A DNA stretch of 64,000 bases from NCBI GenBank assembly GCA_008632985.1, contig QPGO01000007.1, positions 434,001 to 498,000 of the forward strand, read 5' to 3'. How positions within the stretch are numbered: position 1 is the first letter of the stretch; the number at the start of each line of letters is the position of its first letter. Shown here piece by piece: positions 18,561 through 48,806 of the stretch. The DNA comes from Psammoneis japonica. Its lineage: Eukaryota. The notes under the pieces were generated by a model, which saw nothing but the letters and a program-made list of their open reading frames with translations, was not told where the DNA came from and ran no database searches. Made by a program: the position numbers and the translations under genes.

Positions 18561-18762
18561 TTCTTCGAATTTGAGCAATTGACTTGGACCAAACAGCCCA
18601 TGCGTTCGAAAACACGAGGGACTCTCTGCTGAAATGGATGGCGAAAGACCTGGAAAGACCGATCCACCGACCGACCGACCGACCGGACACGAAAAAGTCT
18701 GTAAAAACGAAACCACGCACTCAGTGGTCAGAAAGGTCCATCAAGAAAAATGCACAATTTCA

Positions 18763-19007
18763 AAATTTCAAAACAGCATGCGGGGTGCGATTGACAGCCG
18801 CATCAACTTATCACGCACCGCCAATCATCCTTTGAAACATTCTGACTTGGACTCCCCAGGCTTTGACGCGCTGGAGTCACAAAGGAATGAAAATTTCAAA
18901 GTGGTATGCGGGGTGCGATTGACAGCTGCATCAACCAATCACAACACCGCCAATCATCCTTTGAAACATTCTGACTTGGACTCCCCAGGCTTTGACGCCC
19001 TGGAGTC
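18763..19007 (+). repeat. Tandem direct repeat, 2 x ~128 bp
   Basis: TGCGGGGTGCGATTGACAGC...CCAATCATCCTTTGAAACATTCTGACTTGGACTCCCCAGGCTTTGACGC at 18779 and 18907. Confidence 0.9.
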
Positions 19008-19053
19008 TCATATTTTTACAACATCTCAGGAAGAATTGCAGCACAGCAACAAA

Positions 19054-19229
19054 ATGGTCTTTGGATTCTCTTCATCTTCGCCTTGAACGCTGTTGGTTTC
19101 ACCACTGGTGGTGTTGCCGCCGGGTCCATCGCAGCCTGTATCCACTCGATGATTGGAAATGTGGCCTCAGGAAGCCTGTTTGCTCTGCTTCAAAGCATAG
19201 GTGCGACTGGGATGGCGTTGTTTGTCTAG
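19054..19229 (+). CDS. Small IFI6/IFI27 (Ifi-6-16/ISG12) family membrane protein (1-bp indel just after ATG)
   Basis: Frame from 19056 reads GLWILFIFALNAVGFTTGGVAAGSIAACIHSMIGNVASGSLFALLQSIGATG, matching the ISG12 GFT..G.AAGS.AA...GSL.A.LQS.GA pattern; absent from the ORF track. Confidence 0.75.
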
Positions 19230-20935
19230 TGCATGGGAAGAGTCCAAGAAAGAGAGATGAACCAGCTTGTGAGTGGCCGAAAGACGAAAGTGAAAAGCAA
19301 GACTAGGATGAATGAGTAGAATCATCACGGCATTTGTCATTCTCAAGGTGCTTGATCCAAAAGCGTTTATAATCTAAATTTGACTAGGGATTAATTTTCT
19401 TACAAAAGACATGAACGCAGTACTCGTAGCTCTTGTTCTTTGCGCCGCCCCCCCCCCCCCCCCCCCAGCAGTCGAGTCAATTCGCTGCTACTAGTGTAGA
19501 GTGCACCATGCCTCGTTTCTACCTTCTACCGTTCGACCCGAAGTCGTAGTTTCTCCTCGTCCGCCTTTTCATCACAAATAGTGGCTGGAAACACTCGTGG
19601 GTCCAATCGTGTTGCGTCAACTGACTGTCAACGTCGTCCCTCCCATCGACACCCACCATTGACTCTACCGTAAAGTAATAAAGCGCGATCTAATGATGGA
19701 GAGTCTTCGAGTCGAGAATCGTTTGTAGCAATTTGCTTCCCTTCACACTTTGGCCTCATGCGATGCACAGTTACTGGAAGAGAACCCCAAGGGATGAAAT
19801 AGTTCTGCCGGGCTGTTGGATAAATCTATCGCGAATCGCGATCAGTCGGCTGCACTGAGCCGTACAAAGTAGGATGGAAGCTATATCCCTTGGCTCTGCC
19901 CCATCTTTGCTGCACAATGGTCTTAATGGTGCTACGCCACCTTTAGCGATCGCTGTTGGTCATGATAAACGAGGCCATTGTAGAAATGCACACTGTACTT
20001 TCCAACTTCGTTCTACCGCCTCGAGGAGCCGGACAGGACATTCACACACCGAACAAAGTCAAGTGTGCTGCTAGCACAGATGCAACATGAATCCATACTT
20101 CCTATAAGGAGTAAAAATTTATTACAGCAACAGCGTGTCATTAGATAATAGATGATCTTTCGCAACGGTCTCGCATCAGCTTGACTCATTCACAAAAGAG
20201 CGACTTACCATCAATAGACAACGCAGGTACACAAGCAATTGTCAATATTATTGTTAGTGTAATTTTTAGGAAGTTTCTTTCGATTCAAAAGGGAGCGTAG
20301 GACACGCCACAGTCCCGTCCGATGTGATGAAGAACATTGGTTGAAACAAAATGGTGTCGACACCGACACGAAACTATCAGCCGTTGCTACTCGTTGGGGC
20401 TACTGGCATGATCGAAATCCTTTATCTATAAGTGTTTGAAACGAATGTATCAAAGAAAATGAGTGAGATAATGAAACAAAAGCGCAATAAGATTCGATCG
20501 CGACAGAGAGCGAAGATGAGCAGCGAATCATCGTGGTGCCAGTATAAAGTTCTCTTTTTCATCTTACAAATGACCGATTACCTTCAAACAAGCAAAGTAT
20601 ATTCATTCTATATGATAGTTAAGACTAGTGGTTAGCGTTGGTTTTGTTGAAAGGATCGGAAATAGTCTAATAAGCCGCTCCGATTCTCATGGTGTGTGAT
20701 GTGTGCGTGATGTGCTGTTTTGAGGAATGTGAGCACACGTGACTGAATCAGTCCCGTCTAACTTCTTGGAGACGCGCGCTGCGCGCTCGACTTCCCTCAC
20801 GGACCGACGACAGGCTCTCCAGATTCTTCTCCTCAAAACAGCACACAGCACGTTGACGTTGCGGGAGCGAGAGTGGCGGTGTGTTGCTGTTGTTCAATTC
20901 TTTTTGTGGTTGTGACAGTGTCTTAGTCAATCACA

Positions 20936-24147: not shown

Positions 24148-25093
24148 ATGAGGGGGTGGACAACGTTTTTGATTTTGGGAAGTGTTGGGGCTTGGGTGCC
24201 TCCCACAACACGAACAGCAACAACCTGCTCTCACCACGCCGTTTTCGCAACGCATCTTTCCGCGCATGAAGTACATTGGCTGGATCAGGAAGCAAGAGAA
24301 GAATGCGAGCGCGAAGGTATTCCTCTTGGAGAATCCATTGCTGAAGGCGAGGTGGTTGTATGCCTACCCAACGTTGCCAGCCCAGACGATTGTAACAGAC
24401 TGTTTGAGGCCGGTCTCCAGGCGTGTGAGGGACGAGGCTCTGCAGCTCGTGGACGAAGTCGGTTTAGTGTTTCGGATCCAACGGCCTTTTCAAACGACGT
24501 GGTATTGGTATGCGAAGAAATACTGCTTAAAGTGATGGACTATTTGGACGAAAACATTCCCTCCGTGTACGAGACGCTATTCTTGCCTGGCGAACATTGG
24601 GCAGAGTGGCAACCTCTGAACGCACAGCTCGAGCAACCAACAGTACCGCCAGCTGATCATTTGACAGAAACCTGCGACAGTCTCCGAGAGCTTTACATGA
24701 TGGGCGAACTAGAATGGTCTGAAGGAGAACCAGCAATCAATATATATGAGACTAAGGGGTATTTCGGGTGTCACAAAGATCATCTCGCTCTCACAGTGTT
24801 GATCCCCTTGACATCACCAGATACGTTTTCGGGTGGTGGAACCGGCTTTTGGAAGGGAAATCGTGATGTAGATGAAAATCCAAAGGATCCCCTACGATTG
24901 TACTGAAACCTCCACCTGGATCAGCCCTTATCTTTGGGGGTGATGTCACACACTCCGGAATGCCGGTGGAAGACGGACTTCGCTCCGTTTTGTCTGTTCG
25001 TTTAGCACACGAACACCAGCTTCATCGGAGGATCGTCTCCATGGAATGTTAGCTCCTCCAAAGACAAGCGCAAACTTTAAGGGGACCATCTAG
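24148..25093 (+). CDS. 2OG-Fe(II) dioxygenase (prolyl-4-hydroxylase-like), probable plastid presequence; indels near 24890 and 24990
   Basis: HKD, LTVLIPL, FSGGGTGFW, downstream GSALIFGGDVTHSG...R; signal peptide ending VGA-W. The second copy at ~47095 shows the extra base that keeps frame. Confidence 0.8.
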
Positions 25094-25223
25094 TATTAAA
25101 TAAAAAAGAAATTGATGGATCGAACGTACTTGTAGCATTCACATCACCGCATGCGTGTTGATGCTATCCGTTTCCCCTGTTGCTCTGATTCTAGTTTCTT
25201 TTCTGCCGTTGAGGCTAGCTTTT

Positions 25224-26136
25224 CTAACGTTTCAACATTCGTAGACCGGTTGTTTTGTCACGTTCTTGCGCTGTCATGGGTGATGGCAAACCCGGAAATA
25301 AGAATGCGCAAACGTCAGTGTCAAGAAAGCGATGCGCATACATGGATATTTCTCGCTTTGAAGTGTCACATATCGTGTCTTTATGTTTCTGGTAAAGTTC
25401 TCCCGCAACGTCAAAACGCCCAACTATCAAAAGCTGAATAATTTGGGCCTTCTTTTCGCTACGTCTGCTCTTTTCGTATGCACCAAGAATTCACTCTCTG
25501 CGTCGGTCGGTTCTGGTTGAACGAGGGGTTTCCAAAGGGAAAATCCGATCCAAGGTCGTTCTTTAAGTCCCTTGAAGCTAACCACGCCTACTGGAGCTGG
25601 TGCTTGGGAGGAATAGATGATATCTTGAAATTCTCGATGCCCCGACGAGTCGTTTCTTTGATATCATCATCCGGCCGAACTACCAAAAAGGCAATCATCT
25701 CTTTTTTCGCCGTTGAGGTTGCTCCAGAGATATACGAAACAGCGAATCGTGGATCTATCCCAAAGTATTCCTGATCACGCCTTCTCTGTCTGTTGAGAGT
25801 TGCCGTTGGAATTCCGTCGCGAAAGATGCCAGGGATGTTCCTAATGTCAGTACCATAAAACACCAACGCAAGTACTCTTCCAGCGTCCAAGGATCGCAGC
25901 GCCCGGACGAATCGGTCATATACCATGGTTCCTGCGTACTCATCAGCGGTGACTTGCAACGTAGCACCAGTCAAACCCGCACTCTCGGCACAGTCCACGA
26001 AAGCGCGAGATTCGCAGGCTGCCTTCAAATCGTCAAAATTTAGTTCAGATGTATCATCCTTTAGCATCTTGGCAACGTAGCTAGCATAGAAAAAGGGAAT
26101 TCGTTCCCTCTTCAGAGCGTATACACAATTGCTCAT
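25224..26136 (-). CDS. PARP/ADP-ribosyltransferase-like protein, copy A (frameshift ~25590)
   Basis: ALVFYGT..RNIPGIFRDG...EYFG....AVSY...MIAFLV...HQ(I/L)P resembles the PARP catalytic [H/Y]GT...YF...Y scaffold. Confidence 0.55.
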
Positions 26137-26646
26137 TCTCGCTTCCTTCTGAACGGTTCCAGCTTGTTGACGGCAATCTGTCGGTGTCAAAATACTGTAG
26201 AAGATAGAAGATCATCGCTGTCGCTATCGCTACGACTTCAAACTTCAAACGCGATGTGCGATGTCTTCAGTCGTGCGTACTGCGTACGCGTTGCGCGAGC
26301 TGAAAAAAGAGGTCGTCACACCAGGGTAGACTACGGCAGTCAACGACACACAAAAAACGAGGTACTGCGGGCGGAGCGATGACAAGTGAAAGCCATCGAT
26401 TGCATTTTCATCGCACTCAAACCAACTTAAAGGATCAGCTTGACTGAATTTTGTTGAATCTCGTGCAATGCAGCGTCAAGGAGGGAGACACATTGTCCTC
26501 AGTAAAAGTGATCCTCCGTGTTCACAATCCTCCTGCGCAACTGCAAGAAGGAAAGAAAGCCGCTCAACATCCCAGACAAGTCGTCAGCACTCACAACATT
26601 GCCTTGCTCATCTGAATTAAATCACTGGTCATTCTTCCAAACCATG

Positions 26647-27581
26647 TCAATTGCCTGATGATGGCAATGCAGAAGTGCCAGATTCATGTGCACAGCTCCA
26701 TTCTGATGACTGCGGCCACCGCCATCTCCATCGAATCATCACGCGTGGCGCTTGTCGTCATGATTCAAATGGATCTCATCACATTGCATCTGCACCAGAC
26801 CACAGTTTGGAAATTTTTGTGCTTTTGAAAGTGTGCAGCATCCCATCCCAGGGCTGTCCCTGACAAGGCTTGACCGAGGGAACCATGGCAAACGAGAAGA
26901 GCACACTGGCCAGCATTCTTCTTTTCCCTCTTGACTCGGGACTCACGTTCAAGTTGATGGATTTCTCCCCAAATGCTGTCAGTTGCCTCCCACAGTTCTG
27001 ACAGAGGTTGATGTTTCCTTGGCTTGTCACCTGCATCATCATCAACTCCTCTGCTGTTCGAGTGATCATTCACAACAAATCGCTCTGGGCCACTGTCACC
27101 AACTTCCCAGGCTTGGAACGAGTCGGGGAACTGTTGTTCTGGTTCTTTCTTGTTGCATCCCTCCCATTTGCACAGACAAATTTCTCACAAATCTGCCAAC
27201 ACAATTTTGTTCAATGGAAGCTCACAATGCTTCTTCACAATCTCCAGCATTTGGCGAGCTCGAGTCAGTGGTGAAATGCACACGGCGCCAATCTTGTCGA
27301 TGTTTCGCAGGGCTTGCCGAGCAGCCTCTACAGCCTGAGTCTTTCCCAGATCTGTCAGTCTTGAAAAATCCAAAGACCCTTGAACAAACCCACCGGCATC
27401 TGCATCGGTTTCTCTGTGATGAAGGATTTAAAAGGAACGAGGCATTTCATTGGTGGCAGATTTCACACTGGGAGAAATAGAAAATTTGGCAAAAGCACCA
27501 GAGTTTGCTCTGTCCGGTCTTGAAAGGGTTTCCAACAAAACGCAAATGTGGGAGCTGCTTTGGTTGCTGCGCCAACCCAAC
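26647..27581 (-). pseudogene. Hypermutated, 5'-truncated copy of the histidine-phosphatase gene
   Basis: Colinear with 48807-49730, with systematic CG>TG/CA and TA>TG/CA changes; RHGE region (CGTCACGGAGAA) reads CATCACAGAGAA. Confidence 0.9.
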
Positions 27582-28095
27582 AGCACTCATCATCTTTCAA
27601 CTTTCAACCACCATGACTGATGGGAGTTGAGCTTGATGTCTTCATGATGCAGGCACTCTGTGCAGGGGTGCGGTGTGTCAGCCTTTGCATGTGAGCTCTT
27701 GGTCACTTCAGTGTGAAGATCTGTTGCTCCAGCAAGTCTCAATTGCTGTCCGGTTTGCTGTGGTTTTGTGAATGACCAGCCAGCTTTGTTCTGGTCTCAT
27801 CCATTCTGATCTCCTTTGTGGACCACACTGAAGACGTGTCTTTTTGGTCCCTCTTTTCTCACAAGGCCTTTGGGGCCTCTTCTCACTTCTTGTGGATTTT
27901 CCTGTTTGTGAGGATCAGATCACCTTGACAGCTTGGCAGCTGTTCAGACCTGCATGCTTTAGACTGTCGTTGCTTGTTGCCCCAGCTCATGCTGACATTG
28001 TCTGGCTCATTTCTGTGGTTGTGAGCCCAAGTGTCGTCATTGCTTTGAATTGAATCTGTTGAATTGACAAGAAGCAAAACCTCTGATTTTGTCAA

Positions 28096-31000
28096 ATGAG
28101 CAATCATTCAGCAGGATCAAGCAATCCTTTGTTTGGGGATGCAGACCCTGAACTGTCAAAGAATGAAACATCAGAGGACTCAAGTGAGGAGTCTGAGGAA
28201 AAATCTCAAGGACACTTCTCGGCCTCTCAAGGAGGGATCAAGCAATGCCACTGCAGTGGTTGTTCCTCAAGTTGGCGGGGTTGTTGACAATGTCACAGGG
28301 GCTGGCAGTCCACAAGTTGTGTTGATCCCCACACTGTGGTGCATCATCCACATTGTCAACATCCGATTTCATTCTGTCACTCTGCAACAATTGCACATGT
28401 CATGCTGTCAGAAAGGTTTGCAGTCTAAGATTGACACCAACAAGGACAGCAAGGTGACTATCGCCATTGGTCAGACCAACTCTGTTGACCAGCATCTTCT
28501 CATGAGCAGCATGGATTTGGTGTTCCATGTCCAGAGGAGAGATCCAAGGACAAGGGCACTTGAAGAGTGGAATGTTTCAATGAACTGAGGTTCATTTGAC
28601 CTTCAAGAAGTTAAAGACCATGTTCAATGCTTGCTCTCAATGGGTGATCAATGTGATGAGCAGAAGCTGCAATGGCCAGGAGAGTTCTTTCTTGACTTGA
28701 TCGGGATTGCTCCACTTGGTGACATCCAGAAGTGTGCCAATGGACCTGTGCATGGGCCTGTTGTCTTTAAGCTCATCATGAACGAATTGCATTCATCAAC
28801 TGTGTCGGCTCTCCACTTGGTGTTGGACAAGCTCAAGGCTGTGAAACTCAAGGAAGAACCAGGTGAAACATTGAGAGCTGCACTTCGAAGGCAGTTGAAC
28901 TTTGCAGGCATCTTAAAGGTCATCACAAGTTGCCCAAAGATGCCCCTTCGATCCTTTGCAGTGGAATCGTGACATCGACTGTCAAGCCATTCCGGATTCA
29001 GTTTGTGGCTGTCTTCAATGAAGAGTTGATGTGTGTGGCAAACTTGATGCATGTGCCAACAAGTCACACACCAGTTTGGTTGATCAAAAAGAGTGGATGC
29101 CTTTGAATCAAAGCAAGTCCAGTTGCATCACATTTCTAAATTGTGCAGACCATTGCATTTGCCACAAGTGTGGTCAATGAGGTCACATCCATCCCAACTG
29201 CCCTCAGATTGCTGACAACAACAGTGATCCTGGATGTGGCAGTTTACGTGGCAAAGGTGTTGGTGGTCAATGCGGTGGATGTGAAGACAATTGTGGACCA
29301 GGATGTGAAGGTTGGGGTGATGATCACACTCCTTGGCCACGTCAAACTCCAAGAGGGACCCTCACAGGATTCTCCTCCAAAATGTAGAGAATTTCACATG
29401 CAAGTCTCCAATGGTGCAACCAAGCATTGGTGCAGCAGATGTGGTTGTTGGACCAATCACACTGCTGCCACCAATCACCAAGCTGCCGATGCCAATGCTC
29501 AGAGCACTGCTGCCACTCAAGACCAATTTGAATGCCGTGCGTTGAATGCTGGCAAGTGCCATGTTGCTTGGGACCAGTCCATGCAAGATTCTAGCACTGT
29601 TTCTGATTCTCAAGATGGTGCTTTGGCCAGGAACACATTGAATTGGATCTTTGTGGGTTGTGCCTCAGTGCACAACTTGTCAAACTGGTGGGCCAGTGGA
29701 TTGTTGGTTTGCTTTTCATAAAGGGCCCTGCTCTCTTTAAAACCAATTGTTGGAGGGAAACCAACATTAAAAAAGACTTGGATCAAGTGCCGTTGGAAGT
29801 GCACCCAGAAGTCATGTGTGTTTTGTTGGCACACATGATGTCCATGTGGTCTTTTGCAATGCTCTGCCACATGACTCATGGGCATCATCCTCACTTGTTC
29901 CTGCAAACACCAGGATTTGTTCAGAGGGATGTTGAGACACTCAAGAAAAAAAAAAACACAAGATCCTGAAGTTTTGTCCAAGCAACAATTGTTCCAGAAG
30001 ACTCAACAAACAACATTTTGTTCAATGTTCTGTCCTGAACTTGTTCATGTGTTGGTGGTTGTTTTGACATTTGTTGGGATTCATCAAGCACTGTGGCCAA
30101 GGTCTTCCAAGCAACATCACATGACTCTTCAAGATGAATCAGTTTGCGACATCACAAACCAAGATTGGATCTTCTGACTTCAAACATTGTGTTGCACATG
30201 CTCACGTGCCATTTTGTGAACATTGACTTTTGCAAGAACAGATTGATCATCTTCCAATGTCATTCTCATCTCCTTGTGACAAGCAATTTGAGGTTCTTTT
30301 TGATTCTGGAGCAAATGTCACTTTTGCTTTTGACAAAGAAGATTTTGCACCTGGGGCATTCAAGCTGTTCAACATCACCTGCTGTTGGAGGTTATGTCAA
30401 CATCAAGGGCATGAGCGTTGTTGAGTGGATGGTGTGTTTGATGATGCTGGATGCAAACAACACATCTGCGCTGAGTGCCCCCACATCCTGACTTCTCCTG
30501 TGAAGTTGTTGAGTGTCACTTGTCATGGGCACAACAAGAATGGCAGTGGCTTGGGTTGCAGGCTCAATGTTGACACCTCAAAAGACCATGCTTTCTTTCA
30601 TTAGCATGGCAGTGGCGCCATTGCAATGCCTTGTCATGAAACCAACAGAGTGCCCATTGCAACAGGAAGGAATCCATTTTTGGCAGTGACCTGGAAGCAA
30701 AGCATCTGCACATGTGTGATGGACAAATTCAATCAAAATGTGTCATCAAAACAAAAGAGACTGTTGCAGTGGCATTTTTGCTTGGGTCATCTTGGCTTTG
30801 ATCATGTCAAGTGGTTAGCCAGGAAAGGACACCTTGGGCATGCTGCAAGAGACTGTTGGCTCTGCTGCTGTTGACAGTCCCAAGTGTGGCACATGTCAAC
30901 ATGGTTGAATGACTTGTCGTCCAACCAGAGCTGCACAAACTGAGAAGGTTCCCAGTTGGAATCAATCTCTCAATGTTCTTCATCCTGGACAAGTGGTTGC

Positions 31001-33915
31001 TGCAGACCAGCATGTGTCCTGCATTCAAGGTCATCCATTCAAATCTTGTGAGAAGACCAAAAAAGCAGACAAATGTGGTGGCAGAACTGTTTTTGTTGAT
31101 GTTGCCTCTGGCAAGGTGTCAGCATGTCATCAAGTTTCATCTAGCACTTTCAAGACCATCAAGAGCAAAATGGCTTTTGAGAGGGAGGCTGCTTCTGCTG
31201 GCATTTCCATTCAAGCTCGTCAATCAGATGACACAATTTTTGTGAGCAACAAATTCCTCGAGGAACTCAAGGAGAATGGTCAGGGTGGGAAGCTTGCTGG
31301 TGTTGGGGCACATCATCAGAACACCATTGCAGAGCAAGCAATTTGCAATGTTGCCAAAAGAGCCCACACTGTGATGCTCCATGCTGGAGTTTGGTGGCCA
31401 GATGCAGCAGAGATGGATTTGTGGCCCATGGCCATGAGTCATTCTGTCCATTTGTAGAACTTGACCCCATGAATGGATTTCAATGGATTGTGTCCCAAAG
31501 AAGTCTTCATGGGAGTGAAAGTTTCTTCAAGTTCAACCCTCACAAATTTGGCTGTTCTTTGGGGGATGCCCGACCTGCGTGTTGGACCCAACATTGCAAG
31601 ACAGCAAGAAAATGCCATGTTGGAAGGCCCAACGTTGTCACAGTCAGTTTGTGGGTTGTTTGCCTGTCCATGCAAGCAATGTTGGTTTGATCCAAAACCT
31701 CAAGAGTGGTTTGATGTTGCCCCAATTCCATGTTGTCTGTGACAACTGGTTTGAGATGGTTCATTCAGACAATGAGCGCAGGCCACCAAGGAATTGGTTG
31801 GACCTCCTCACCACTTCAAGACATTGTGTGGACACTGATGATGGTTTGGCATTGCCTCCGTCATTAAATGATTGGCTTGCTGCTGAAGAATTGAATGATT
31901 GGCATGTGCAACAGGAAGAGCAATGGAGGCAACAATGAGTGCAAGCATCAGAACCAATGAAACAGAGGGAGAGGATGCCTGGATCATCTTCTTAAGGACA
32001 ATCCAATGCTCCCAGATGGTTGAGTGTTCCACTTTCAAGCAATGTTTTGCTGGATCTTCCATTGTCTCTAGATTTTGTCCACAATGAAGTCACGCCTCCA
32101 AGCATTGAATCCCCTTTTGCTCCATCTGACATTGCAGAGGCTCAAGAGGAAGACTCCAGAGTTGCTGGGTCTCCAGAATTGCCATTGGTTGCCAACAATG
32201 ATGGCCATTTTCCCAAAGCTCTAGACAAGTTTTGGCTCCATTCTAGTTGCAGGACAGCAGAGTTTGTTGGAACACATGCAATGTTTGCTGACCTTGATGG
32301 TGGCAGTGTCAATTCTGTGCATCCATTGTCAGCATTTTTGTTGGATTCTGTTGCAAGTGAGAAGACTTGTGGTCCTGATGCTTCTTTGCACCATGAAGCA
32401 ATGGCAGCACCACACACAAAGAGTTCAAGAAAGCCATGCATTCCAAGATCAACAATTTGATGTGATGCAATTCATTCACTCTGGTGCTGCACAAGTTGGT
32501 GCCATCTGATGCCAATGTTCTGCATGGCACTTTGGCATTTAAGTTCAAGAGACACCCTGACAGATGTCTCAAGAAATTCAAAGCACAATTTTGGGTGCAA
32601 GGGAACCATCAACAAGAGGGGGTTGATTTCTTTGAGACTTGTGCTCCAGTGGTCCAGCAGAGTGCAGTTTGGTTGGCTCATGAGTCCCTTTGTGTGGCAT
32701 GGATTGGCATCTTGCCAAGCAGATCACTCTCTTGCTTTTGCTCAGACATTGAAAATGACACACACATTGAATTGCCCAAGCTCTTTGAGACAGAACACAA
32801 AGGAGACCATGCACTGAAGCTTGACAAGAGGTTGCATGGGTTGCATCAAGCCATGACTGCTTGGTTCCAGCATTTGCCCAAGGGTCTGGAAGAGGTTGGA
32901 TCACACTCCAGTGAGAGTGATCCTGTGTGTTGATGATTGTTTGTTCTTTGCAAAGGATCTCACAAAAATTGACAACACAACAAGTCAACTCAAGACAAAC
33001 AGATGCAAACTTGATGTTGAGGACAATGCAAGTTGTTTTCTTGGCATCAACATTGACAGAGAAAATGAGGCTGGGACCGTCAATCTCACTCAAAAGGGAC
33101 CTGTCGAGAAGATCATTGCTGCCATGAACATGGAGGGTTGTCACATGAAGGCTGCTCCAGCAAGCTCCACTCCATCAGCCACCAATGCTGACGGTCCTGA
33201 GTGAGTCAAATTGTGGAGCTGCACAAGTGTTTTTGGCATGATGCTCTGTTTGGCTTCCAATGCAAGTGGCCTGATGTCCAACATGCAGTCCACAGCTGTG
33301 CCAGTTCATGCACAATCCCAAGAAGAGCCACAAGAAAGTGGTCTGGGCATCTTCAAGGCACAAAGGACCACAGTGTGACTTTTGCTGTCTCTTGCAACTC
33401 AAGGTTGGATTGCCATTGCAGTGCAGTTCTTGCCAGACATTGGAGCTGCAAAGACCCACAAGATCCCACATGCATCAAAAGTCAGTCTGGTCATTTGTTG
33501 ACCATTGGCAGCAACCCATTGATTTGGGCTTCCAAGCTGCAGACCAAGGTTGCTTTGTCTGCACTTGAGGTGGAGCATGTTGCCCTGTCTCAGGTGATGA
33601 GAGTTCCACCACCCATGAAACGGCTCATCAAGGAGGTTGCCTCTTTGATGAGCATCAATTGGGACAACAAAAAGTTGTTCCATTCTGCCATTTTCAAGGA
33701 TGGCAAAACAGTGCTTTGGCCATGATGCTGAGGATGACTCCACATGCAAAACATGTTGGGATCAAGCATCACTTCTTCAAGTCTCACATTTTGAAACCTG
33801 GCTTTGTGATTCACACTCAGAAGATTGCCAGTGAAGAGCAGTGGGCAGATGTCTTGACTGAGGGTTCAGTGCAGGACAAGTTTGAGCATTTGCGGAAGAA
33901 GATCATGGGGTGGCA
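28096..33915 (+). mobile_element. Ty1/copia LTR retrotransposon (CoDi-like), dead and hypermutated; LTRs not found
   Basis: Copia domain order: gag (GPVVFKLIM...VKLKEEPGE; WCSRCGCWTNH ~29428), protease FDSGAN (~30298), GAG-pre-integrase WHFCLGHLGF (~30770), integrase (ADQHVS...FVDVASG...HHQN), RT (AFKFKR.PD, VDDCL ~32929), RNase H (WASKLQT.VALS..E.EHVALS...KKIMGW). Confidence 0.92.
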
Positions 33916-34214
33916 GGTTGTGGTGGATTCATTTTTTATGTTGATTCAAGTTCAAATGCATGTGTTGCATGTGAAAATGGGGCAATGGCAATCAGGCATG
34001 ACAACTGGGGTTGTTGCATCTTTGCATGTGGTTTTGCATCACTGAGTTGTTTTACAAAGTTTGCTCCTGCAAGAGGATGGGCTGGTTGGAAGAGGACAGA
34101 CCAGTTTTTCTTGCTCTGCAGGCTCTGAGCAAACCATGTGCATGCTGCACAGGTGAGGCAGTTGTTGTTCTTGCTGCATTGCAAGCACAGCATTGTGCGT
34201 TTCTTGAAGTTCCA

Positions 34215-35300
34215 CCAAGACAACAACTGGTCATTTTGTTGAGTTGAAGGACACCACAAAAAAAGACCTCCAGAAGACTGTTGTGCCAACCAACAAAACA
34301 GAAAGAAGAAGTCTGGCAGGGTTAGAAGGACAAAGCCAATTTTCAGTGATCTGGCACTGCTGCAGCAGATGAAGCTGACCAAGTGTTGCAGCAAGCCCAC
34401 TGAGATCCATCCCAGACCCAACATGAGTGTGCATCTTCAGACAGTTTCTCTCTGAAGTTAAGACTGCAGCACAAAGCATGCCTGCCTCAGAGTGTTTGGC
34501 AAAACAGCTGCTCAGATTGCACTGGCATGCACCTGCACATGGATGGTGCAGAAGACTTTGTCCAAGGCTTGCAACTCCAAGGAAAGGCAGAGGCTGATGA
34601 CTTGCCAATCAATGTCTTGAATGGCAAACAAAGGCTGCAGAGACATGTGCACAAAAACCATTCATGCCGATGCAGCTTCAGATCCCAGAGTTGGCGCAAA
34701 CAGCTGTGCTGCAAAGATTTTTTATTCTGCTGTCCTGCAGGAGCAGCATGACAACAGACTTGCATGCTCACACCCATTGGGAGAGGGTGATGATCAACAA
34801 AACCCAGGCAGCACAAATGCAAAGGTCTTTTTGCACTGGTTGCAGCCACTTCTTCTTTGTTTGTTGCACTTGGAGGTCTTCAAATTTTGTTGCACTTTCT
34901 TCACAAATTCTGCACTTTTGCAGACTGAGCCTGCATGTGGCATGCTCTTGGTTGGCCAGCATTGAAAGACAATGATGCCCCCACTGATGCTGCTCTCACT
35001 GAAGCACAAGCAAGGTTTGCCTTGGTGACAGTGGGCACATCAAGGCTGCCCATTGGCCATGCCATTCACAAGGAACAGCTGCTGCCTCTCTGTCTTGGCA
35101 GCTCTAAACTGAAGAGTGTGTTTCTGGACCAACATGCCTTTTGATCTTCCAACCAGATGTGGAAGCCATTGGGTGTTGGAGTTTGGCATGGACCAAATTA
35201 CAAAGAGCATTGCCAATCGTTGCACAAAGGGCTGCACTGCACAGAGCACAGAGGAGAGCTTGTTGATCCAAGCTGGTGACTCCTGTCTCAGCCAATTGTG
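34215..35300 (+). pseudogene. Hypermutated partial copy of the MYND gene (5' half plus upstream)
   Basis: AAAGACCTCCAGAAGAC, CCCAGACCCAACATGAGTGTG, GACATGTGCACAAAA and GCTCTCACTGAAGCACAAG align with 40410-41470. Confidence 0.85.
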
Positions 35301-35314
35301 TTCTTGTCAGTCAA

Positions 35315-35980
35315 ATTTGATGGAAAATCGGCTTCGCCAATTTTGTTTGTTTGTTTGTTTGATCATCAGAGAGAGAGAGAGAGAGAGAGAGAGACTTTCT
35401 AAGTGCACCCAAATGACCCACCATCAAGTGAACTGCAGAAATTGTGGAAAGGTGCAATGGCCAACCCTCTCTGCTCACAACCCCTCTCAAACCTTTGAAA
35501 CCATGCCTGACAATGCATCGGCCTTGACCGCATGATTGTCTGCTGCAGTCACTCTCACAACCTTGGAAATCTCCTTTCCTGCTGCACACTCCGAGTCTCC
35601 CATGCCCCCCAGTTTCGTCCCATTGGATTGCAAACATGGAGGCCACTGAGAGAGAGAGAGAGAGAGAGAGACAACAACTTGACTTGAATCGATTCAACCA
35701 ACCTGTCTGTCCTTCTTTGGATCTTTTTAACACAACAACGCCCACCGCACGACAACAACAACAGCCAGCTGCTGATGAAGCCACCGCAAAAGTCTCATTC
35801 TCCCAACTTCGGCCAATGTTGTTGTGCCTGCTGTTCACTGAAATGGTTGGACAAACATCCGATTGAGCAGCTCCACCTTAGCTGCTTGCATTGCCATTGT
35901 TTGTCACATTTGACGGAAAATTGGCTTTGCCAATTTTGATCATTTGAGAGAGAGAGAGAGAGAGACTTTCTAAGTGCACA
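35315..35980 (+). repeat. Duplicated ~70-90 bp unit containing (GA)n microsatellites
   Basis: ATTTGA.GGAAAAT.GGCTT.GCCAATTTT...(GA)nCTTTCTAAGTGCAC at ~35315-35410 and ~35908-35980; third (GA)n at ~35648. Confidence 0.8.
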
Positions 35981-37389
35981 AGCAGTGTGCATTGGCACAG
36001 CAACATGTTTGGTTTTTGGAGACAATGGCATTGCAGGGTCCAGGGCTCTTGGTGTGGCAAAAAAGGTCAATCATGATTCAGCTGCCCACTGCCAGAGTGT
36101 TGTGCAGCTGTCATTTGCAAAAGAGCCAGAGACAAGGTCTTGGTGAGAGTGCTGTGGCAAGCCTCCCAGGCAAACATTGTGGTGGTGGGGGGGGGGGGGG
36201 GGCAAGTGTTTGGAGAGCACAGCTTGGCAGCAAAAGAAGATGGACAAAAATGGCAGAGGTTGTTCTTGATGTGTGAGTCTGTGAGGTGCAAAGTGGTGGG
36301 TTGAAATGACAAGCACAAGCTGGTGGTGCACAAGAGAGCATTTCATGGATTGCTGGCTCCATGCACAACTTCTCTCTGCATGCCTCTTGTGGAAGGACAG
36401 ACAGAAGGGAAAAAGTGCGCTCACTTGGTGTGGTGCTGTTGTTGTTGAAATTGCCAGCAGGCAGCAGACCAGAAGAGATCATGCAAGCATGCTTGCACAT
36501 TGTCCATGCAGAGAGCATGTGTGGCTGCACACACCAGTGGGAGCACTGAAGACTTTTTGGGAGTTGCTGCAAAAGTTTGTTGCAGCACTTTTCAACAGCA
36601 GAGGCTCTTGCCATCAAGTGTGCATCACAAGATAAAAGAAACTGTGCTCATGCAAAAACATGGGCTGAGATGCTTGAGCACCACCCAGTGTTGCTTCTCC
36701 AGCCCACTTCAGCCAGGGCCATCATGCTGCAGAGGAAGTTGTGTCCTGCAGAAAAATGCAATTGTCAAAATCCAACTGCAACATGCCATGAAAGATCTCT
36801 GGCAAAGCTGAGTTAGAAGTGAGTTTGAAGGTGCAATGAAACAAGGCAACAGAAGCCCACAAAAACAATGTGGCAGTTGCTGCTGTCTTTCTCATCCCTG
36901 GCCAGAATTTTCATTGATGTTGACACAATCCCATGCAAAGAGCATTTTAAGTGAGTGCAAATGCATTGTCTTCAACACTTTGTGTGTCCTGAACAAACAG
37001 ATCATGCAAAAATGGGACAGGGCTGTGTTTGCCAATGTGGTTTGGCAAAAGCCTGTCAGCTTGCATGCAGCCTGGCTTGTGTCCTGTGTGACTGGGAGAA
37101 GAGTTCATTGCACAACACTCTGGACTGTCTCTCAGCTCCACCAGTCTGTTGCTGGGCATGCTTTTTCTCTGACCCTCTTGCACTGTGGTCGTCCTTGCTG
37201 GGCCACAGAGGGGCACTCTGCACAGCTCCTCCATCTGCTTCTCCTTCCCCTTTCCCTTTTTGCTGCCTTGCCACTCTTCCTCTCCTCCTTCTGTTGTGTG
37301 GTTTCATGTCTCCCTGCTGTTGGGTGGTGGCTCTCTGGCTGGAGATCCACATTGGGGTCTCAAGAATGAGCCAGAGACCCAAGTCTGGG

Positions 37390-37443
37390 TTCCCCAGATC
37401 TGGATCCCCAGCTGGAGGTCTGGTGTGCTCATGGCCTGCACCA

Positions 37444-37474
<31 letters not shown>

Positions 37475-37925
37475 AGAGCTTGAGCAAGAGTGCACTGGAC
37501 ACTGGAAGAAGAGAGTCAGAGAGTGACAGAGGGCAATCAACCTGTTGATTGTTTGGCGCAGATTTGAGACCAATGAGGGGCAGCGGTCTGTGCTCCCCCC
37601 TTGTTTGAGTGGGGGGTTGTCCTCCAAGATCTGCCATGCCTCTGCTTCACTTGTCAAGATTGTGGAGGCAGTGTGCAAGTTTGTGAGCACTGTTCAAACT
37701 GCAGCAAGCTCATTCCTTTCTTTCTTCAATGTTGTGCTTCATGTTGGTGAGTTTAGAGAGTGAGAGTTTTTGCTTGCAGCCCACCAGCCCCGATTCCCCC
37801 AGATCGGGATCCCTGGCTTGAGGTCTGATGCTCATGGCCTGCACCACAACCAACCAGAGAGCTTGAGCAAGAGTGCATCAGGCACTAAAATGAGAGAGTC
37901 AGAGATCAACAGAGGGCAATCGACC
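37390..37925 (+). repeat. Dispersed direct repeat (~140 bp x2) with (CCAG)n tract
   Basis: TTCCCCAGATC.GGATCCC...GCTCATGGCCTGCACCAC...AGAGAGCTTGAGCAAGAGTGCA...AGAGGGCAATC.ACC at ~37390-37543 and ~37794-37925. Confidence 0.8.
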
Positions 37926-38135
37926 CACAAAGATCTTGGATCTTCCGACTGAGAACGGCGTTGCCGTGTGCCGTGCGTCTGTTGCGTTGCGCGTTGCGCT
38001 GCTGCGCGTGCCGGTGCAGCACACGGTGCGTGCGGCACGGTGCGGCATCTTTGCGGCGCACCTTGTCTTTGCGGCGCAATCTGCCTGGAGACCTTGCTCC
38101 CAGCTGCCGAATCGAAAAATTTGCGACATTGCAAA

Positions 38136-39828
38136 ATGGACAGCTTGCCGAGTTCATTTTTGGCATGCCAGTGCAAAGTTGTGTAGATCTGTGCATACAA
38201 GTTTCTACGTTGGTTTGTGCTGAAATGGCAGTTGGACCCATCAGCTCATTCAAATTTGTACAGCGACCCACCCGTGCATGCCGCACTCACAATGGTGATG
38301 ATACGACGGCATTGTTTGCACTCTGACGCTGTCTTGCCACATCGCATCTCCCTTGCCACGGAGTTTTAGAACATCACTGACAACTGGTTCAATAAAATGA
38401 CCGGTCGTGACAGAGTTGCAGGGGTTTTGTTTCGCCATGAAAAGACGCCGTTGGACCCATCAACACGACGTATGTACAATGGTCGGTGTTGGAATTGTGA
38501 CGATGCATTGGCCCCATTTGAAGTGTCTTTAGCGGCATTGTGACGTTAGCATGCGGCATGGAAGACTCAGCCGTTCCCAATGTGGTGGCATGACGGTGGA
38601 GTTGGCTGGAGCCCAAGGAGGACTTGTCAACATGACGCACCGGTGCGACGTGCAATGGTTGGTGTTGGAATTGTGATGATGTGTTGGCCCCATTTGAAGT
38701 GTCTTTAGCGGCATTTTATGACGTTGGCATGCGGCATGGAACACTCAGCAGTTCCCAATGTGGTGGCATGACGGTGGAGTTGGCTGGAGCCCAAGGAGGA
38801 CTTGTCAACTTGACGCACCGGTGCGACGTGCAATGGTCGGTGTTGGAACTGTGACGATGTGTTGGCCCCATTTGAAGTGTCTTTAGTGGCATTTTATGAC
38901 GTCAGCATGCGGTGTGGAATGCTCAGCAGTTCCCAATGTGGTGGCATGACGGTGGAGTTAGCTGGAGCCCAAGGAGGACTTACCTTGAATGTGTTTCTGT
39001 GGATGCAAGAAAAGCAAATGACACATTGGCCCCATTGGAAGTTACTTGAGCAGCATTGTGGCAAACACAACCGGCACGGATAACTGAGAAGAGCTTAAAT
39101 TGGTGGCATGACAGTGAATTTAGCCTGAGCCCAAGGATGGCTGTCTCTGAAAATGTTGCTCTCTGTGGCAGGAACTGCGAGTGGTTGCTTTGTTGTCCTT
39201 TTCTCCATGCAGCAGCAGTTTAGATGGCTCTGCTTTGTGGGCACAAACAAGCAATGCTTCTGAAATGATCACTGGTTGTGGATGTTAACCAGTCACACGA
39301 CAAATCTATGACTGAAGTGGAAGTGCTGGAGCGTTGTCAAGTCGGCGGCATTGTCATCTTGTTGGACGAGCTGGAAGTCTCGTCATTTGCTCTTCTGCTG
39401 CAGAGAACATTGGTGGAATTGAACAACAACTTGATAGAGAAGACATCAGCAATGTTGGTGGAGGAGTTGGCTGTGGTTGTGATCTGAGAATGATTCAAAG
39501 TGGGCGACGCAGACGACCTGACAACACGCAAACAGCTGTGCAGTCCATTGAAGCTACTGACCAGCTTTGAAGGCGATTTATTTTGTCTGTTGATAGACCA
39601 ATCATCTATATGCTATGTGACAATAACGTGTTGGCATTTTTACTCAGCATTCACAGTGTATTAGCAACGCCATTAGCTCTGTCGACACCTCTTCGTGCTT
39701 CGTGTTATTCTCGTGTTGGAGCTCGCAGAGTTCGTGATTTTCGTACGCATGTATGAGAAACTGTCGAATGTAGAAACATATTGAATTTCTACTGGCATAC
39801 CAAAAATGAAACTCGGCAAGCTGTCCAT
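38136..39828. mobile_element. Putative non-autonomous DNA transposon (~1.7 kb) with ~37-bp terminal inverted repeats
   Basis: ATGGACAGCTTGCCGAGTTCATTTTTGGCATGCCAGT (38136-38172) is the near-perfect reverse complement of ACTGGCATACCAAAAATGAAACTCGGCAAGCTGTCCAT (39791-39828); no clear TSD. Confidence 0.7.
38470..39140 (+). repeat. Tandem repeat, ~177-bp unit, 3 good copies + 1 degenerate
   Basis: CAATGGT.GGTGTTGGAA at 38477, 38653, 38831; GGTGGCATGAC.GTG.A.TT.GC..GAGCCCAAGGA recurs four times. Confidence 0.92.
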
Positions 39829-40479
39829 AATTCCGAATCCCCGCACAATCATCGCGCGGCGAGTCGAGAAACGACCCTTGTCACCCTCCAAGATCGTCTT
39901 TGCGACGCGGCCAACATCCTCTGGTGCAATTCAAGGTGCAGGCGTTCTTTCTACTTCGATTAAGAAAAGATATGATGCACGAGAAATGACAAGAAATCCT
40001 TATTTTCAAAGGAAATTGCCTTCTCGTGACAGCAACTCATGCCGACGCATCGCAAGATTTCAACAAAAAATGACCTTTTTGGATGATTACACCGCCTTTC
40101 CTCACAAACAAAACGTCATATAGCTCTTAATAATGATAATAATCTGATTGGTTTGTTATTTCATGTCACTTACAGACCTTCGGTTGTCGAAACAGTAGCA
40201 TTTGCTCATTTGAAGCGAAAAATGAAGCACTCAGAGACCTCGCACGTGCTTTCATCGTGAAAAAATTCGAGCTATTTGTTTTTATAAATTAATTTGCGAT
40301 TCGCAAATTTTGCGTTTCAGTAGCCAGGCACCAGCAGGCAGTTTGTGAGTGGTCGCAGTGTCCATTGTCGCAGGTTTGAAGTTCGCAAATACCATAGTAG
40401 TTCGTGTTGTTGACAACAACCGACCAGATTGTGGATTCGAAGGACATTAATCTTCCCGAAAGACCTCCAGAGGACCACC

Positions 40480-42159
40480 ATGCCGACCAACAAAAAGAAA
40501 AAGTCCGGCAGCAAAAGGGGCAAAGCAAATTTTCAGCGATCCGCCACAGTGGTATTTGGAGAGACAGAAGTTAGGTCGGAACTACCCGAGTGTTACGGCG
40601 AACCCGCTGAGATCCGTCCTAGACCCAACATGAGTGTGTCTTCCGAAAGATTCTCTGAAATGAAGTCTGCAGTACAAAACATGCCTGCTTCAGAACGTTC
40701 CGCAACAGCCGCTCGGATTGCACTAGCATACGATTACATGGATGATGTGGAAGACTTAGTCCGAAGCCTGCAAGTCCGAGGAATGGCAGAGACCGACGAC
40801 TTACCGATCGACGTCTTGATTGCGAATAAAGATTACATGGACATGTGCACAAAACTCATTCACGCCAATGCAATTTCAGATCATAGAGTTGGCATCAACA
40901 GCTACATTGCAAAGTTTTTTCCACTGCCATCTTGTTGGAGCCACGTGACAGACTTGCATCCGTTGGGAGGTGAGAATCAAACAAACTTGGGCAATGTAAC
41001 TGCAAAGGCCTTTGTTGCACTGCTTGCGACCGCGTCTTTGTTGATGGTGACTGGGAGTCTTCAACAAATGTCACTGCGCATTGTTCACGAACTCCACATT
41101 CACGCAGACCGAGGCGACGACTGGCTTGATTGGTCAGTGTTGAAGGACAACGATGCATGCGAAATTGCTCTCACTGAAGCGCAAGTGAGGTTTGCGCTAG
41201 CGACTGTGGGTATCAAGGTAGCCCGTCGACTGTACCGTCAACGGGAAGAACGACAGTTTTATCCTGGCAGCCCTAAACTGAAGAGTGCGTTCTTGCTTGA
41301 TACCATTGAAAGACTTGCTCAAGACCAATGTACCTTTGGACCTTCCTTCCAGATGGAAGCGGTTGGGTGTTGGAATTTGGCGTGGGCCGCATCACAAAGT
41401 GTCGCCAAGCGCGGTGTTCATCCGCTCGAGGGAGCGGCAGAGTGTTTGTACCAAATGCGGCGTTGCATGGAGCTCGCTGATTCAGAAGAGAACGACTTTC
41501 TGAGGGCAGAAGCACGCATTGATGCTGCAATGTGTTTGGTTTTGGGAGGCGATGGTATTGTAGGGTACAAGGTTCTCGGTGGCGAAAAAGGTCAATCGCA
41601 GCGCAACTATCGATCGCTGAAGAACCAGAGACGAAACCTTGGAGAGAGCACTATAGCAAACGACCTTCTTCTTGGATTTAAAGTAGGCGGGGATACGAAG
41701 GAGATCCGTTTAGCAAGTATGGAGTATGAAAAGTGTCGAATCAATAAGGGAATTCCATCTACAACATTGGAGGCGGGCGAAAGCCTTCTAGTTGCTTGGT
41801 GGGAGGTCAACAGGTTGTGGAATGAGGCTATTTTGGGGCCTTACGACTCAATCAAACAATGGGGTCACGAGTGCTTTGTCTTTGGCGAAGCCGCTGGTTG
41901 GGATGTTGTTGTTTCCTTTTTGGAGAAGACTCGCAATTACGCAAGAGGAATGTATGCCAACGCACCCAATCCACCTGGACTTCCAGGCAAACGTGACAAG
42001 GGGGGTGAGTACTCGGAGAGTATAACTTGTGCCACCTGCCGAAAGATGGACAAAAATAACAGAACTTGTTCTCAATGTAAGTCGGTGACCTATTGTTCAC
42101 GCGATTGCCAAGTGGCGGACTGGAAAAAGCATAAGCTGGTGTGCAAGTCTGTCTTGTAG
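40480..42159 (+). CDS. MYND zinc-finger protein (C-terminal zf-MYND)
   Basis: Intact ORF ending CATC...CSQCKSVTYCSRDCQVADWKKHKLVC; basic N-terminus (KKKKSGSKR). Confidence 0.88.
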   Translation: MPTNKKKKSGSKRGKANFQRSATVVFGETEVRSELPECYGEPAEIRPRPNMSVSSERFSEMKSAVQNMPASERSATAARIALAYDYMDDVEDLVRSLQVRGMAETDDLPIDVLIANKDYMDMCTKLIHANAISDHRVGINSYIAKFFPLPSCWSHVTDLHPLGGENQTNLGNVTAKAFVALLATASLLMVTGSLQQMSLRIVHELHIHADRGDDWLDWSVLKDNDACEIALTEAQVRFALATVGIKVARRLYRQREERQFYPGSPKLKSAFLLDTIERLAQDQCTFGPSFQMEAVGCWNLAWAASQSVAKRGVHPLEGAAECLYQMRRCMELADSEENDFLRAEARIDAAMCLVLGGDGIVGYKVLGGEKGQSQRNYRSLKNQRRNLGESTIANDLLLGFKVGGDTKEIRLASMEYEKCRINKGIPSTTLEAGESLLVAWWEVNRLWNEAILGPYDSIKQWGHECFVFGEAAGWDVVVSFLEKTRNYARGMYANAPNPPGLPGKRDKGGEYSESITCATCRKMDKNNRTCSQCKSVTYCSRDCQVADWKKHKLVCKSVL

Positions 42160-47023: not shown

Positions 47024-47310
47024 CAGATACGTTTTCGGGCGGTGGCACCGGCTTTTGGAAGGGAAATCGTAATGTAGATGAAAATCCAAAGGATCCTCCG
47101 ACGATTGTACTGAAAACCTCCACCTAGATCAGCCCTTATCTTTGGGGGGGATTGAGGATGTCACACAGTCTGGAATGCCGGTGGAAGACGGACTTCGCTC
47201 CGTCTTTGTCTGTTCGTTTAGCACACGAGCACCAGCTTCATCGGAGGATCGTCTCCATGGAATGCTCCTCCCAAAACAAGCGTAAACTTCAAGGGGGCAA
47301 TTTTTTAGTA
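47024..47310 (+). pseudogene. 3' fragment of the 2OG-Fe(II) oxygenase
   Basis: Only DTFSGGGTGFW onward is present, with extra indels. Confidence 0.8.
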
Positions 47311-47428
47311 CTTAAAAGAAATTGATGGATAGAAAGTACTTGTAGCTTTCACATCTATCACCGCATGCGTGTTGATGCTATCCGTTTCCCTTGCTGCTCT
47401 GATACTAGTTTCTTTTCTGCCGTTGAGA

Positions 47429-48339: not shown

Positions 48340-48806
48340 TCTCGCTTCCTTCTGAACGGTTCCAGCTTGTTGACGGCAATCTGTCGGTGTTAAAATACTG
48401 TAGAAGATAGAAGATCATCGCTGTGCTACTGTACCGCCTACGACTTGCAAACTTCAAACGCGATGTCTTCAGTCGTGCGTTGCGCGAGCTGAAAAAAAAA
48501 GAGCTCGTAGCACCAGGGTACGATACAGAAAAAACATACAAGGAACTGCGGGAACGATGACAAGTGAAAGCCATCGATGCCTCATCGACTCAACAACTTA
48601 AAGGATCAGCTTGACTGGATTTTGTTGAATCTCGTACAATGCAGCGTCAAGGAGGGAGACACATTATTTTCACTTTGTCCTCCGCGTCCACAATCCTGCG
48701 CAACTGCAAGGAAAGAAAGCCGCTCAACATCCCAGACAAGTTGTTAGCGCTCACAAAATTGCCTTGCTCATCTGAATTAGATCACTGGTCATTCTTCCAA
48801 ATCATG

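Follow-up and report, generated by a model that had tools for sequence, protein, structure and literature searches.

The first account of hypermutation of foreign DNA directed at the TpA dinucleotide appeared as a preprint in 2026; it concerns a single alga and identifies no enzyme. According to the main text of that preprint, in mutation-accumulation lines of Bigelowiella natans the mutation rate is raised about 1000-fold in two regions of integrated viral DNA, the DNA concerned deriving from giant viruses and virophages; the changes are almost exclusively A>G or T>C and always fall at TpA, and clusters that are poor in TpA and rich in CpA and TpG are enriched in open reading frames (ORFs) for reverse transcriptase and transposase; the agent suggested by the authors is a DNA adenine deaminase of ADAT2-like type (Mettrop et al., bioRxiv 10.64898/2026.01.13.699255). 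A search of the literature brought up no further report of TpA hypermutation and nothing of this kind on diatoms. The words “trinucleotide,” “context” and “flank” have no occurrence in the main text of the preprint, and a flank rule could sit in its Table S2. Here, we describe a 64,000-nucleotide stretch of Psammoneis japonica DNA (“the window”; GenBank assembly GCA_008632985.1, contig QPGO01000007.1, positions 434,001 to 498,000 of the forward strand; all positions below are counted within the window), in which TpA has been almost completely erased from a degenerate Ty1/copia-type retroelement and its surroundings, with a marked preference for A in the context 5′-T-A-Y-3′ (Y, pyrimidine; R, purine).

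The footprint resembles that of B. natans, as described in the preprint’s main text, in the direction of change (A>G or T>C at TpA, yielding TpG or CpA), in the depletion of TpA with a gain of CpA and TpG, and in its confinement to discrete foreign or repetitive domains, which are here the copia element with its neighbours and a second domain at 16–18 kb. It differs in the host, a diatom (stramenopile) instead of a chlorarachniophyte (rhizarian), in saturation, with an observed/expected ratio (o/e) for TA of 0.03–0.1 here versus 0.45 in the nucleocytoplasmic large DNA virus (NCLDV) region of B. natans, and in the type of evidence, which is live mutation accumulation there and a footprint only here. 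Moreover, CpG is co-erased in the window, whereas the main text of the preprint makes no mention of CpG. New here are the diatom lineage, the near saturation, the spatial coupling with CpG decay and the quantitative T-A-Y rule, which has no counterpart in the main text of this sole description of TpA hypermutation that was found.

Dinucleotides were assessed by o/e, with the AA step strand-symmetrised, i.e., including TT. The window background has a G+C of 0.476 and o/e values of 0.57 for TA, 0.94 for CG and 0.90 for AT. Two blocks stand out from it, at 16.0–18.0 kb and ~26.5–37.9 kb, both within the TA, CG and TG/CA ranges listed for the core in Table 1; the larger one contains repeats besides the copia element and two gene duplicates. 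By sub-domain, the G+C of the core is 0.462–0.483 over most of its length and 0.494 in 34.0–37.9 kb. It remains near background because the loss through CG>TG/CA is balanced by the gain through TA>TG/CA. The AA step is nowhere depleted (o/e 1.16–1.34 in all sub-domains), the AA, AG and GA steps are near background throughout, and the AT step, like G+C, departs from background only mildly and only in the oldest sub-domain, 34.0–37.9 kb (AT o/e 0.71, GC o/e 1.29). With 1290 TG and 1224 CA in the domain, both strands are altered alike. TA o/e is low across the window outside the domains as well, reaching 0.29–0.34 in single 1-kb bins (4001–5000, 11001–12000), with TG/CA slightly up.

The low TA of the background (0.57) is what an explanation without any dedicated agent could build on, be it drift, gene conversion biased towards GC, selection against TA, or an artefact of sequencing or assembly. 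We nevertheless find such an explanation barely credible: the domain has the G+C of the background over most of its length, AA is undepleted, AT is lowered only in 34.0–37.9 kb, the region is pseudogenised and rich in stops, its edges are sharp, and in the control half of the duplication (see below) only 9 of 117 TA and 10 of 171 CG sites have changed. A contig set from the Sequence Read Archive (SRA) reproduces the sequence: public run X1, which is possibly the assembly’s own sample and hence not independent, contains 0.91 of the sampled window words, and contig pieces of 790–1576 bp match with 0–1 differences. In addition, three contigs from other assemblies share the signature. The explanation is largely refuted because the change is context-dependent, and the near-background AA, AG and GA steps in every sub-domain bear out the preliminary description, which had argued against drift and GC-biased gene conversion.

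This context dependence is most apparent from the TA sites that remain. Between 26640 and 37900, 43 TA sites are left, all at or beyond 27329: 30 YTAR (TTAA 12, TTAG 7, CTAA 6, CTAG 5), 8 YTAY, 5 RTAR and no RTAY. These numbers agree with the hand count of the preliminary description, which had put roughly 40 survivors into ~27.3–37.9 kb, with about three quarters YTAR (its examples at 28611, 29592, 31141, 31992 and 32221 all belong to this class) and none RTAY. As a background served the 1853 TA sites in unmutated parts of the window, where YTAR, the commonest class among the survivors, is the rarest (YTAR 0.185, YTAY 0.253, RTAR 0.256, RTAY 0.306). These shares predict 8 YTAR, 11 YTAY, 11 RTAR and 13 RTAY among 43 sites (chi-square p = 7.4e-17), and the chance of finding no RTAY is 1.5e-7. 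If the survivors were context-blind back-mutations of TG or CA, 11.0, 11.7, 10.7 and 9.5 sites would be predicted for the four classes in the same order, which is ruled out at p = 5e-10. When the counts are scaled to length, a fraction of 0.37 survives for YTAR, 0.07 for YTAY and 0.04 for RTAR, but 0 of ~134 expected sites for RTAY. All 16 NTAN counts (N, any base) are fitted by a four-parameter multiplicative model in which the fate of the A on one strand is independent of that on the other and its chance of survival depends on the 3′ base alone (deviance 6.75). The fit gives A a survival of 0.82 before A, 0.45 before G, 0.074 before C and 0.089 before T; splitting the 3′ base into Y and R improves twice the log-likelihood difference (2dLL) by 64, and a further split of A and G adds 7.3. 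Conversion of these survival values to –ln gives relative rates of roughly TAC 13 : TAT 12 : TAG 4 : TAA 1. In the partly eroded flanks of both blocks, the YTAR share is 38–40% (counts in Table 1).

The direction of change can be read from two alignments with unmutated paralogues, which together cover 53 reference TA sites of this one window. Pair 1 compares the phosphatase copy at 26560–27585 with its reference at 48.7–49.73 kb (33 sites), and pair 2 the MYND copy at 34262–35205 with 40459–41399 (20 sites). In pair 1, the nine YTAY sites became TG five times and CA once (one kept, two transversions), and the eight RTAR sites became CA five times and TG once (one kept, one transversion); seven RTAY sites yielded CA 4, TG 2 and AA 1, and nine YTAR sites TG 4, CA 2 and AA 1, with two kept. 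In pair 2, all six YTAY sites turned into TG, and the four RTAR sites into CA (3) and CT (1); TG (3) and CA (2) replaced the five RTAY sites, while the five YTAR sites gave TG 2, CA 1 and TT 1, with one kept. Taking the asymmetric sites of both pairs together, 19 changes are TAY>TGY (or RTA>RCA) and 2 are opposite (binomial p = 2.2e-4); the symmetric sites are without strand bias. All substitutions that had been listed earlier for the phosphatase alignment are present, but the claim of a single exception, TTAC>TCAC at 27236, was wrong, as GTAG>GTGG at 27549 is a second one. Equal survival of all NTAN classes and symmetric TG and CA outcomes at YTAY and RTAR sites were both looked for, and neither was found (p = 7e-17; 19:2).

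Counted per strand over both pairs, A>G is found at 21/33 TAC, 10/19 TAT, 5/22 TAA and 6/33 TAG. TAY (31/52) thus exceeds TAR (11/55) with an odds ratio of 5.9 (Fisher p = 3e-5), in line with the earlier proposal that A:T>G:C is favoured by a 5′ T and a 3′ pyrimidine. The 5′ T is equally evident when A>G is sorted by the preceding base (T 42/107, A 33/287, C 32/287, G 28/271). In pair 1, transitions concentrate at TpA (TAY 16/31 and TAR 8/35 versus 29/455 for A outside TpA), and A outside TpA changed about as often before a pyrimidine (15/207) as before a purine (14/248). The control, i.e., the unmutated left 1.4 kb of the duplication, has 4/72 TAY, 5/45 TAR and 26/601 other A changed (TpA 9/117), along with 10/171 CG and 25/482 other C. 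Positions –2 and +2 around TAY had no visible effect (51 sites), and the values for +2 after TAC (TACG 4/5, TACA 8/16, TACC 7/9) are too small in number to judge this position. Taken together, the footprint gives good support to a motif-specific, strand-resolved agent that would be neither drift nor gene conversion.

Such an agent need not be a deaminase. The signature of DNA polymerase eta (Pol eta) is WA>WG (W, A or T), and A>G after a 5′ T falls within this motif, such that an error-prone repair polymerase of this type, recruited to heterochromatin, would be another candidate. AAY is indeed raised in pair 2 (17/56). However, an AA hot spot is absent from pair 1, where AAR (4/81) and AAY (3/74) are at baseline next to the much higher TAR and TAY, the AA step is undepleted in every sub-domain, and both strands are affected alike, all of which makes a Pol eta-type polymerase very unlikely.

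The left edge of the core lies within a segmental duplication of 2.76 kb, the copies of which are ~22 kb apart. The left part of the duplication is 91% identical to its partner and keeps 19 of 20 CG. Of the reference TA sites, 16/18 are kept in 25901–26235 versus 5/36 in 26426–27585, i.e., the mutated zone starts at ~26.24–26.47 kb, in the intergenic part of the duplication; the right edge is at ~37.9 kb. An ORF at 25588–26190 (–) is located on the unmutated left side. The partner copies at 47.0–49.7 and 40.5–41.6 kb are intact. An edge inside a segmental duplication with intact partners implies that the process acts on chromosomal DNA in place, and since the domain stops inside the duplication and leaves the partners untouched, targeting tracks the silenced region rather than duplication of sequence. 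As judged from the sequence, the erasure is an in situ, domain-targeted DNA process, the affected region being continuous with the retroelement.

This arrangement sets the locus apart from fungal RIP (repeat-induced point mutation), a process it resembles as a transition-only hypermutation that pseudogenises transposons along with adjoining duplicated genes and rewrites dinucleotides over kilobases. The two run in opposite directions, in that RIP turns CpA into TpA, whereas here TpA is destroyed and CpA gained. Furthermore, RIP affects the two copies throughout the duplicated stretch, while here mutation is limited to one copy and to part of the 2.76-kb duplication. A RIP-like pairing rule is excluded by the intact partner copies and the partial mutation of one duplicate.

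The edges also bear on ADAR-like editing of double-stranded transposon RNA, which could be fixed in the genome via reverse transcription and re-insertion. The 3′ neighbour favoured by ADARs is G. This idea would suit a core that contains a retroelement, and a 5′ U is favoured by ADARs according to the Discussion of the B. natans preprint (bioRxiv 10.64898/2026.01.13.699255). We give it next to no credence, as DNA outside the retroelement (the phosphatase and MYND duplicates, the repeat flanks) has been mutated along with it without a break, the edge cuts through a segmental duplication, and TAG ranks with the contexts that are mutated least (6/33), with a per-strand survival of 0.45 versus 0.07–0.09 for TAY. 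Because in-place mutation continues beyond the element, the route via RNA editing and retrotransposition is excluded. The comparison with the ADAR and Pol eta signatures that had been suggested at the outset therefore yields no match on either side, given the rarity of change at TAG and the untouched AA sites of pair 1.

CpG has been erased along with TpA in 26466–37900 and 16000–18000; the preliminary description does not mention this loss, although CG o/e is 0.06–0.19 in the domain of its survivor count. In the two alignments, C>T is CpG-specific (G as 3′ base 75/214, A 24/287, C 15/186, T 18/221) and depends on the base 5′ of CpG (ACG 24/52, TCG 29/73, CCG 10/41, GCG 12/48), i.e., WCG (0.40–0.46) changes more often than SCG (0.24–0.25; S, C or G). 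Loss in pair 1 amounts to 85% for TA versus 64% for CG. The CpG loss can be told apart from the TpA process, since the flanks at 18.0–19.25 and 37.9–39.5 kb have a TA o/e of 0.16–0.26 at a CG o/e of 0.73, and the two erasures appear to differ in reach or speed. Most simply, the CpG loss would reflect deamination of putatively methylated CpG in silenced DNA. It shares with methyl-CpG decay the CpG specificity of C>T and the location in a transposon-bearing domain, the methylation here being presumed; however, methyl-CpG decay accounts for the CpG part of the footprint alone, and the TA-depleted flanks keep CpG.

The joint loss of both dinucleotides is the main attraction of a reading in which T is attacked instead of A. 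A TET/JBP-type dioxygenase would oxidise T to 5-hydroxymethyl- or 5-formyluracil at 5′-R-T-A-3′, and mispairing with G would result in T>C. Since TAY>TGY and RTA>RCA are the same event on opposite strands, sequence alone cannot assign the attack to A or T, and every survivor and polarity count fits both equally. Moreover, TpA and CpG are both steps with a 5-methylpyrimidine before a purine and are erased together in the core, and the same chemistry on 5-methylcytosine could add to the CpG loss. 5-Formyluracil is mutagenic, and dinoflagellate 5-hydroxymethyluracil (5hmU) is found preferentially in TpA and TpC. Still, oxidation of T seems rather unlikely to us, as TA and CG loss are separable in the flanks, the CpG flank rule is a different one (WCG over SCG), and the B. 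natans authors, in the main text of their preprint, favour A deamination, albeit without proof (bioRxiv 10.64898/2026.01.13.699255).

The copia element itself comprises a CCHC knuckle near 29150, an integrase at 30290–31900, an RVT_2 domain at 32400–33260 (E 2e-10) and a C-terminal part up to ~33900. In tblastn searches with 10 copia-type proteins, two of them from named diatoms, aligned segments are 31–59% identical. A protein search for relatives of the element returned only 10 matches of 33–42% identity, which are too distant for site-by-site polarisation of the DNA. As there is no close unmutated relative, conserved tyrosine codons were used for polarity, defined as codons with Tyr in at least half of at least three homologous copia proteins; nine were flagged, and 31575 was dropped owing to an overlap with 31576 in the frames of two high-scoring segment pairs (HSPs). 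None of the remaining eight is still TAY: five are TGY (Cys), and one each is CAT (His), CGT and TGG. The single Tyr-to-His codon, CAT, is preceded by A, i.e., represents an RTAY site. In 10 undepleted copia relatives, 92 Tyr positions include Tyr 39, Cys 3 and His 2. A second test measured the products as excess per kb, in coding-strand orientation, over 41 undepleted copia loci: YTGY (+19.6/kb) exceeds YCAY (+7.9/kb), and RCAR (+12.8) exceeds RTGR (+8.4), matching the prediction of polarised conversion combined with unpolarised CpG decay.

Related footprints were sought in metagenomes with an integrase alignment of nine copia-type proteins, one of them from a named diatom. Of the 80 loci returned, three from other assemblies are TA-depleted over their full length: L031 (TA o/e 0.04, CG 0.05), L032 (0.01, 0.37) and L045 (0.19, 0.31). 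Their survivors amount to 19 YTAR, 11 YTAY, 0 RTAR and 0 RTAY, and a pyrimidine precedes all 25 TA of L045. The product test on the three loci agrees with the TAY rule for YTGY (+15.5) versus YCAY (+5.6). None of the three has DNA similarity to the window element, and the 80 loci include neither a close DNA relative of that element nor an unmutated partner of L031, L032 or L045. A 500-bp scan of all 80 loci revealed no further depleted blocks, except for single windows in L043, L060 and L062. In a pattern scan of viral contigs, none of 121 matches was confirmed.

Overall, we consider it probable, although well short of certain, that a mutator targeted to a chromatin domain turned A:T to G:C at TpA, in place and on both strands. 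It acts strand by strand on 5′-T-A-Y-3′, converting YTAY to YTGY and RTAR to RCAR, such that YTAR (TTAA, CTAG, TTAG, CTAA) is the last to survive, whereas RTAY is wiped out because it is favoured on both strands. Its target is the degenerate copia retroelement together with the adjoining duplicated host-gene fragments in a silenced region. The agent may be an adenine deaminase working on DNA, whose product, inosine, would be read as G; like TadA/ADAT, it would need a 5′ T, and it would favour a pyrimidine 3′ of the A. The system may be of one kind with that behind the TpA hypermutation observed live in B. natans. By analogy, a TadA-type enzyme would be the candidate. TadA/ADAT2 and TadA-derived adenine base editors likewise turn A into inosine read as G and share the 5′ U/T, a resemblance of signature only; the natural motif of TadA is UACG (PMC13170351), with a C 3′ of the A that the changes at TAC would suit, whereas T is about as good as C at +1 here (10/19 versus 21/33). 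The natural substrates of TadA are tRNA and mRNA loops, in contrast to the chromosomal DNA considered here. Of the interpretation given in the preliminary description, the motif-specific, enzyme-like agent hence stands, while the likeness to TadA is incomplete.

Several observations weigh against this reading or narrow it. The data fit an attack on A or on T alike, the deaminase chemistry is a conjecture from the footprint, and the process may be active or past. Polarisation relies on two alignments in one window with 21 informative asymmetric sites, and the counts “expected before” mutation use the NTAN make-up of a mostly genic background rather than that of the ancestral element. A higher resistance of TAA than of TAG reaches significance in the survivor fit alone (2dLL 7.3); the alignments (5/22 versus 6/33) do not show a difference between the two. 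In pair 2, A outside TpA changed at 45/178 sites before a pyrimidine versus 19/212 before a purine (p = 1.7e-5); given these changes, “TpA mutator” is too narrow a term for the oldest sub-domain. This hints that the 3′-pyrimidine rule may be intrinsic and the 5′ T strongly preferred, but not absolute, based on one old, 69%-identical alignment and the shift in AT and GC. For the three loci from metagenomes, the product test fails for RCAR (–0.3) versus RTGR (+10.1), and the Tyr test (one Cys, two His, two kept) points neither way. Coding-strand TG/CA counts are 184/141 in L031 and 270/180 in L032, the median TG/CA of the 80 loci being 0.82, which suggests that the two strands of these loci may be hit unequally, unlike in the window (1290/1224).

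Table 1. Features of the window that are relevant to the erasure of TpA and CpG.
Feature	Position	Strand	Description
Second fully erased domain	16000–18000		4 TA and 16 CG in 2 kb; surviving TA sites CTAA, CTAG, GTAT, TTAC
TA-depleted flank, CpG close to normal	18001–19250		TA o/e 0.16, CG o/e 0.73; 13 TA sites, 5 YTAR
Segmental duplicate of 47024–49730	24818–27581		blastn 84.6–88.9% identity; only the right 1.1 kb (histidine-phosphatase pseudogene copy) mutated
Core hypermutated domain	26466–37900		TA o/e 0.03–0.10, CG o/e 0.02–0.36, TG/CA 1.6–2.0; left edge in intergenic part of the segmental duplication
Degenerate Ty1/copia-type retroelement	28100–34000	+	RVT_2 profile match and tblastn with copia-type proteins; many TGA stops, frameshifts
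Heavily mutated duplicate of MYND-finger gene part 40459–41597	34262–36072	+	68.6% identity over 992 columns; in oldest sub-domain
Multi-copy repeat flank, TA-depleted, CpG close to normal	37901–39500		TA o/e 0.26, CG o/e 0.73; 25 TA sites, 10 YTAR; contig depth 400–2000
Unmutated reference copy, pair 2	40459–41597	+	Inside 576-aa MYND-finger ORF 40429–42159
Unmutated reference copy, pair 1	47024–49730		Intact His_Phos_1 ORF, match 48807–49433 (–)

A Memo-family ORF at 9546–10478 has its best relatives at 52–73% identity, and the named sources are all diatoms (Attheya, Nitzschia, Seminavis, Cylindrotheca and others); the window is diatom nuclear DNA. The second domain has no recognisable content, a Pfam search having detected no family inside 16–18 kb; just outside of it, a short ORF segment at ~19065–19230 (+) belongs to the Ifi-6-16 family (PF06140, E 1.8e-14). 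The repeat flank on the right of the core contains internal tandem copies at 38474–38981. Very high-copy repeats are located at 35300–36250 and 38100–39500, where the contigs of run X1 reach a summed depth of 900–2100 versus ~65 for single-copy sequence, and they include (GA)n-type tracts that are translated as ERERER. Alignment of 1082 contigs of this run (at least 80% likeness) to the window showed ~1170 places at which copies differ, mostly by transitions, with A>G 225, T>C 237, C>T 223 and G>A 192, and 27–41 for each type of transversion.

The motif T-A-Y >> T-A-G > T-A-A constrains any candidate enzyme, argues against ADAR-like and Pol eta-like agents, and could serve as a fingerprint for a genome-defence enzyme. 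It is applicable to the 231 published de novo mutations of B. natans as well as to any diatom genome. For scans of other eukaryotes, the absence of RTAY together with surviving YTAR in TA-poor, TG/CA-rich blocks would be diagnostic. A broader suggestion, which we put forward tentatively and hold to be possible rather than probable, is that diatoms and Bigelowiella, and thereby at least two branches of the stramenopile-alveolate-rhizarian (SAR) group, possess a “reverse RIP”: a DNA adenine deaminase derived from TadA/ADAT would be guided to silenced chromatin, where it would convert TAY to TGY on both strands and render transposons and integrated viruses unreadable, as a second layer of defence beside CpG methylation. 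If this is true, the TAY rule would be the fingerprint of that enzyme.

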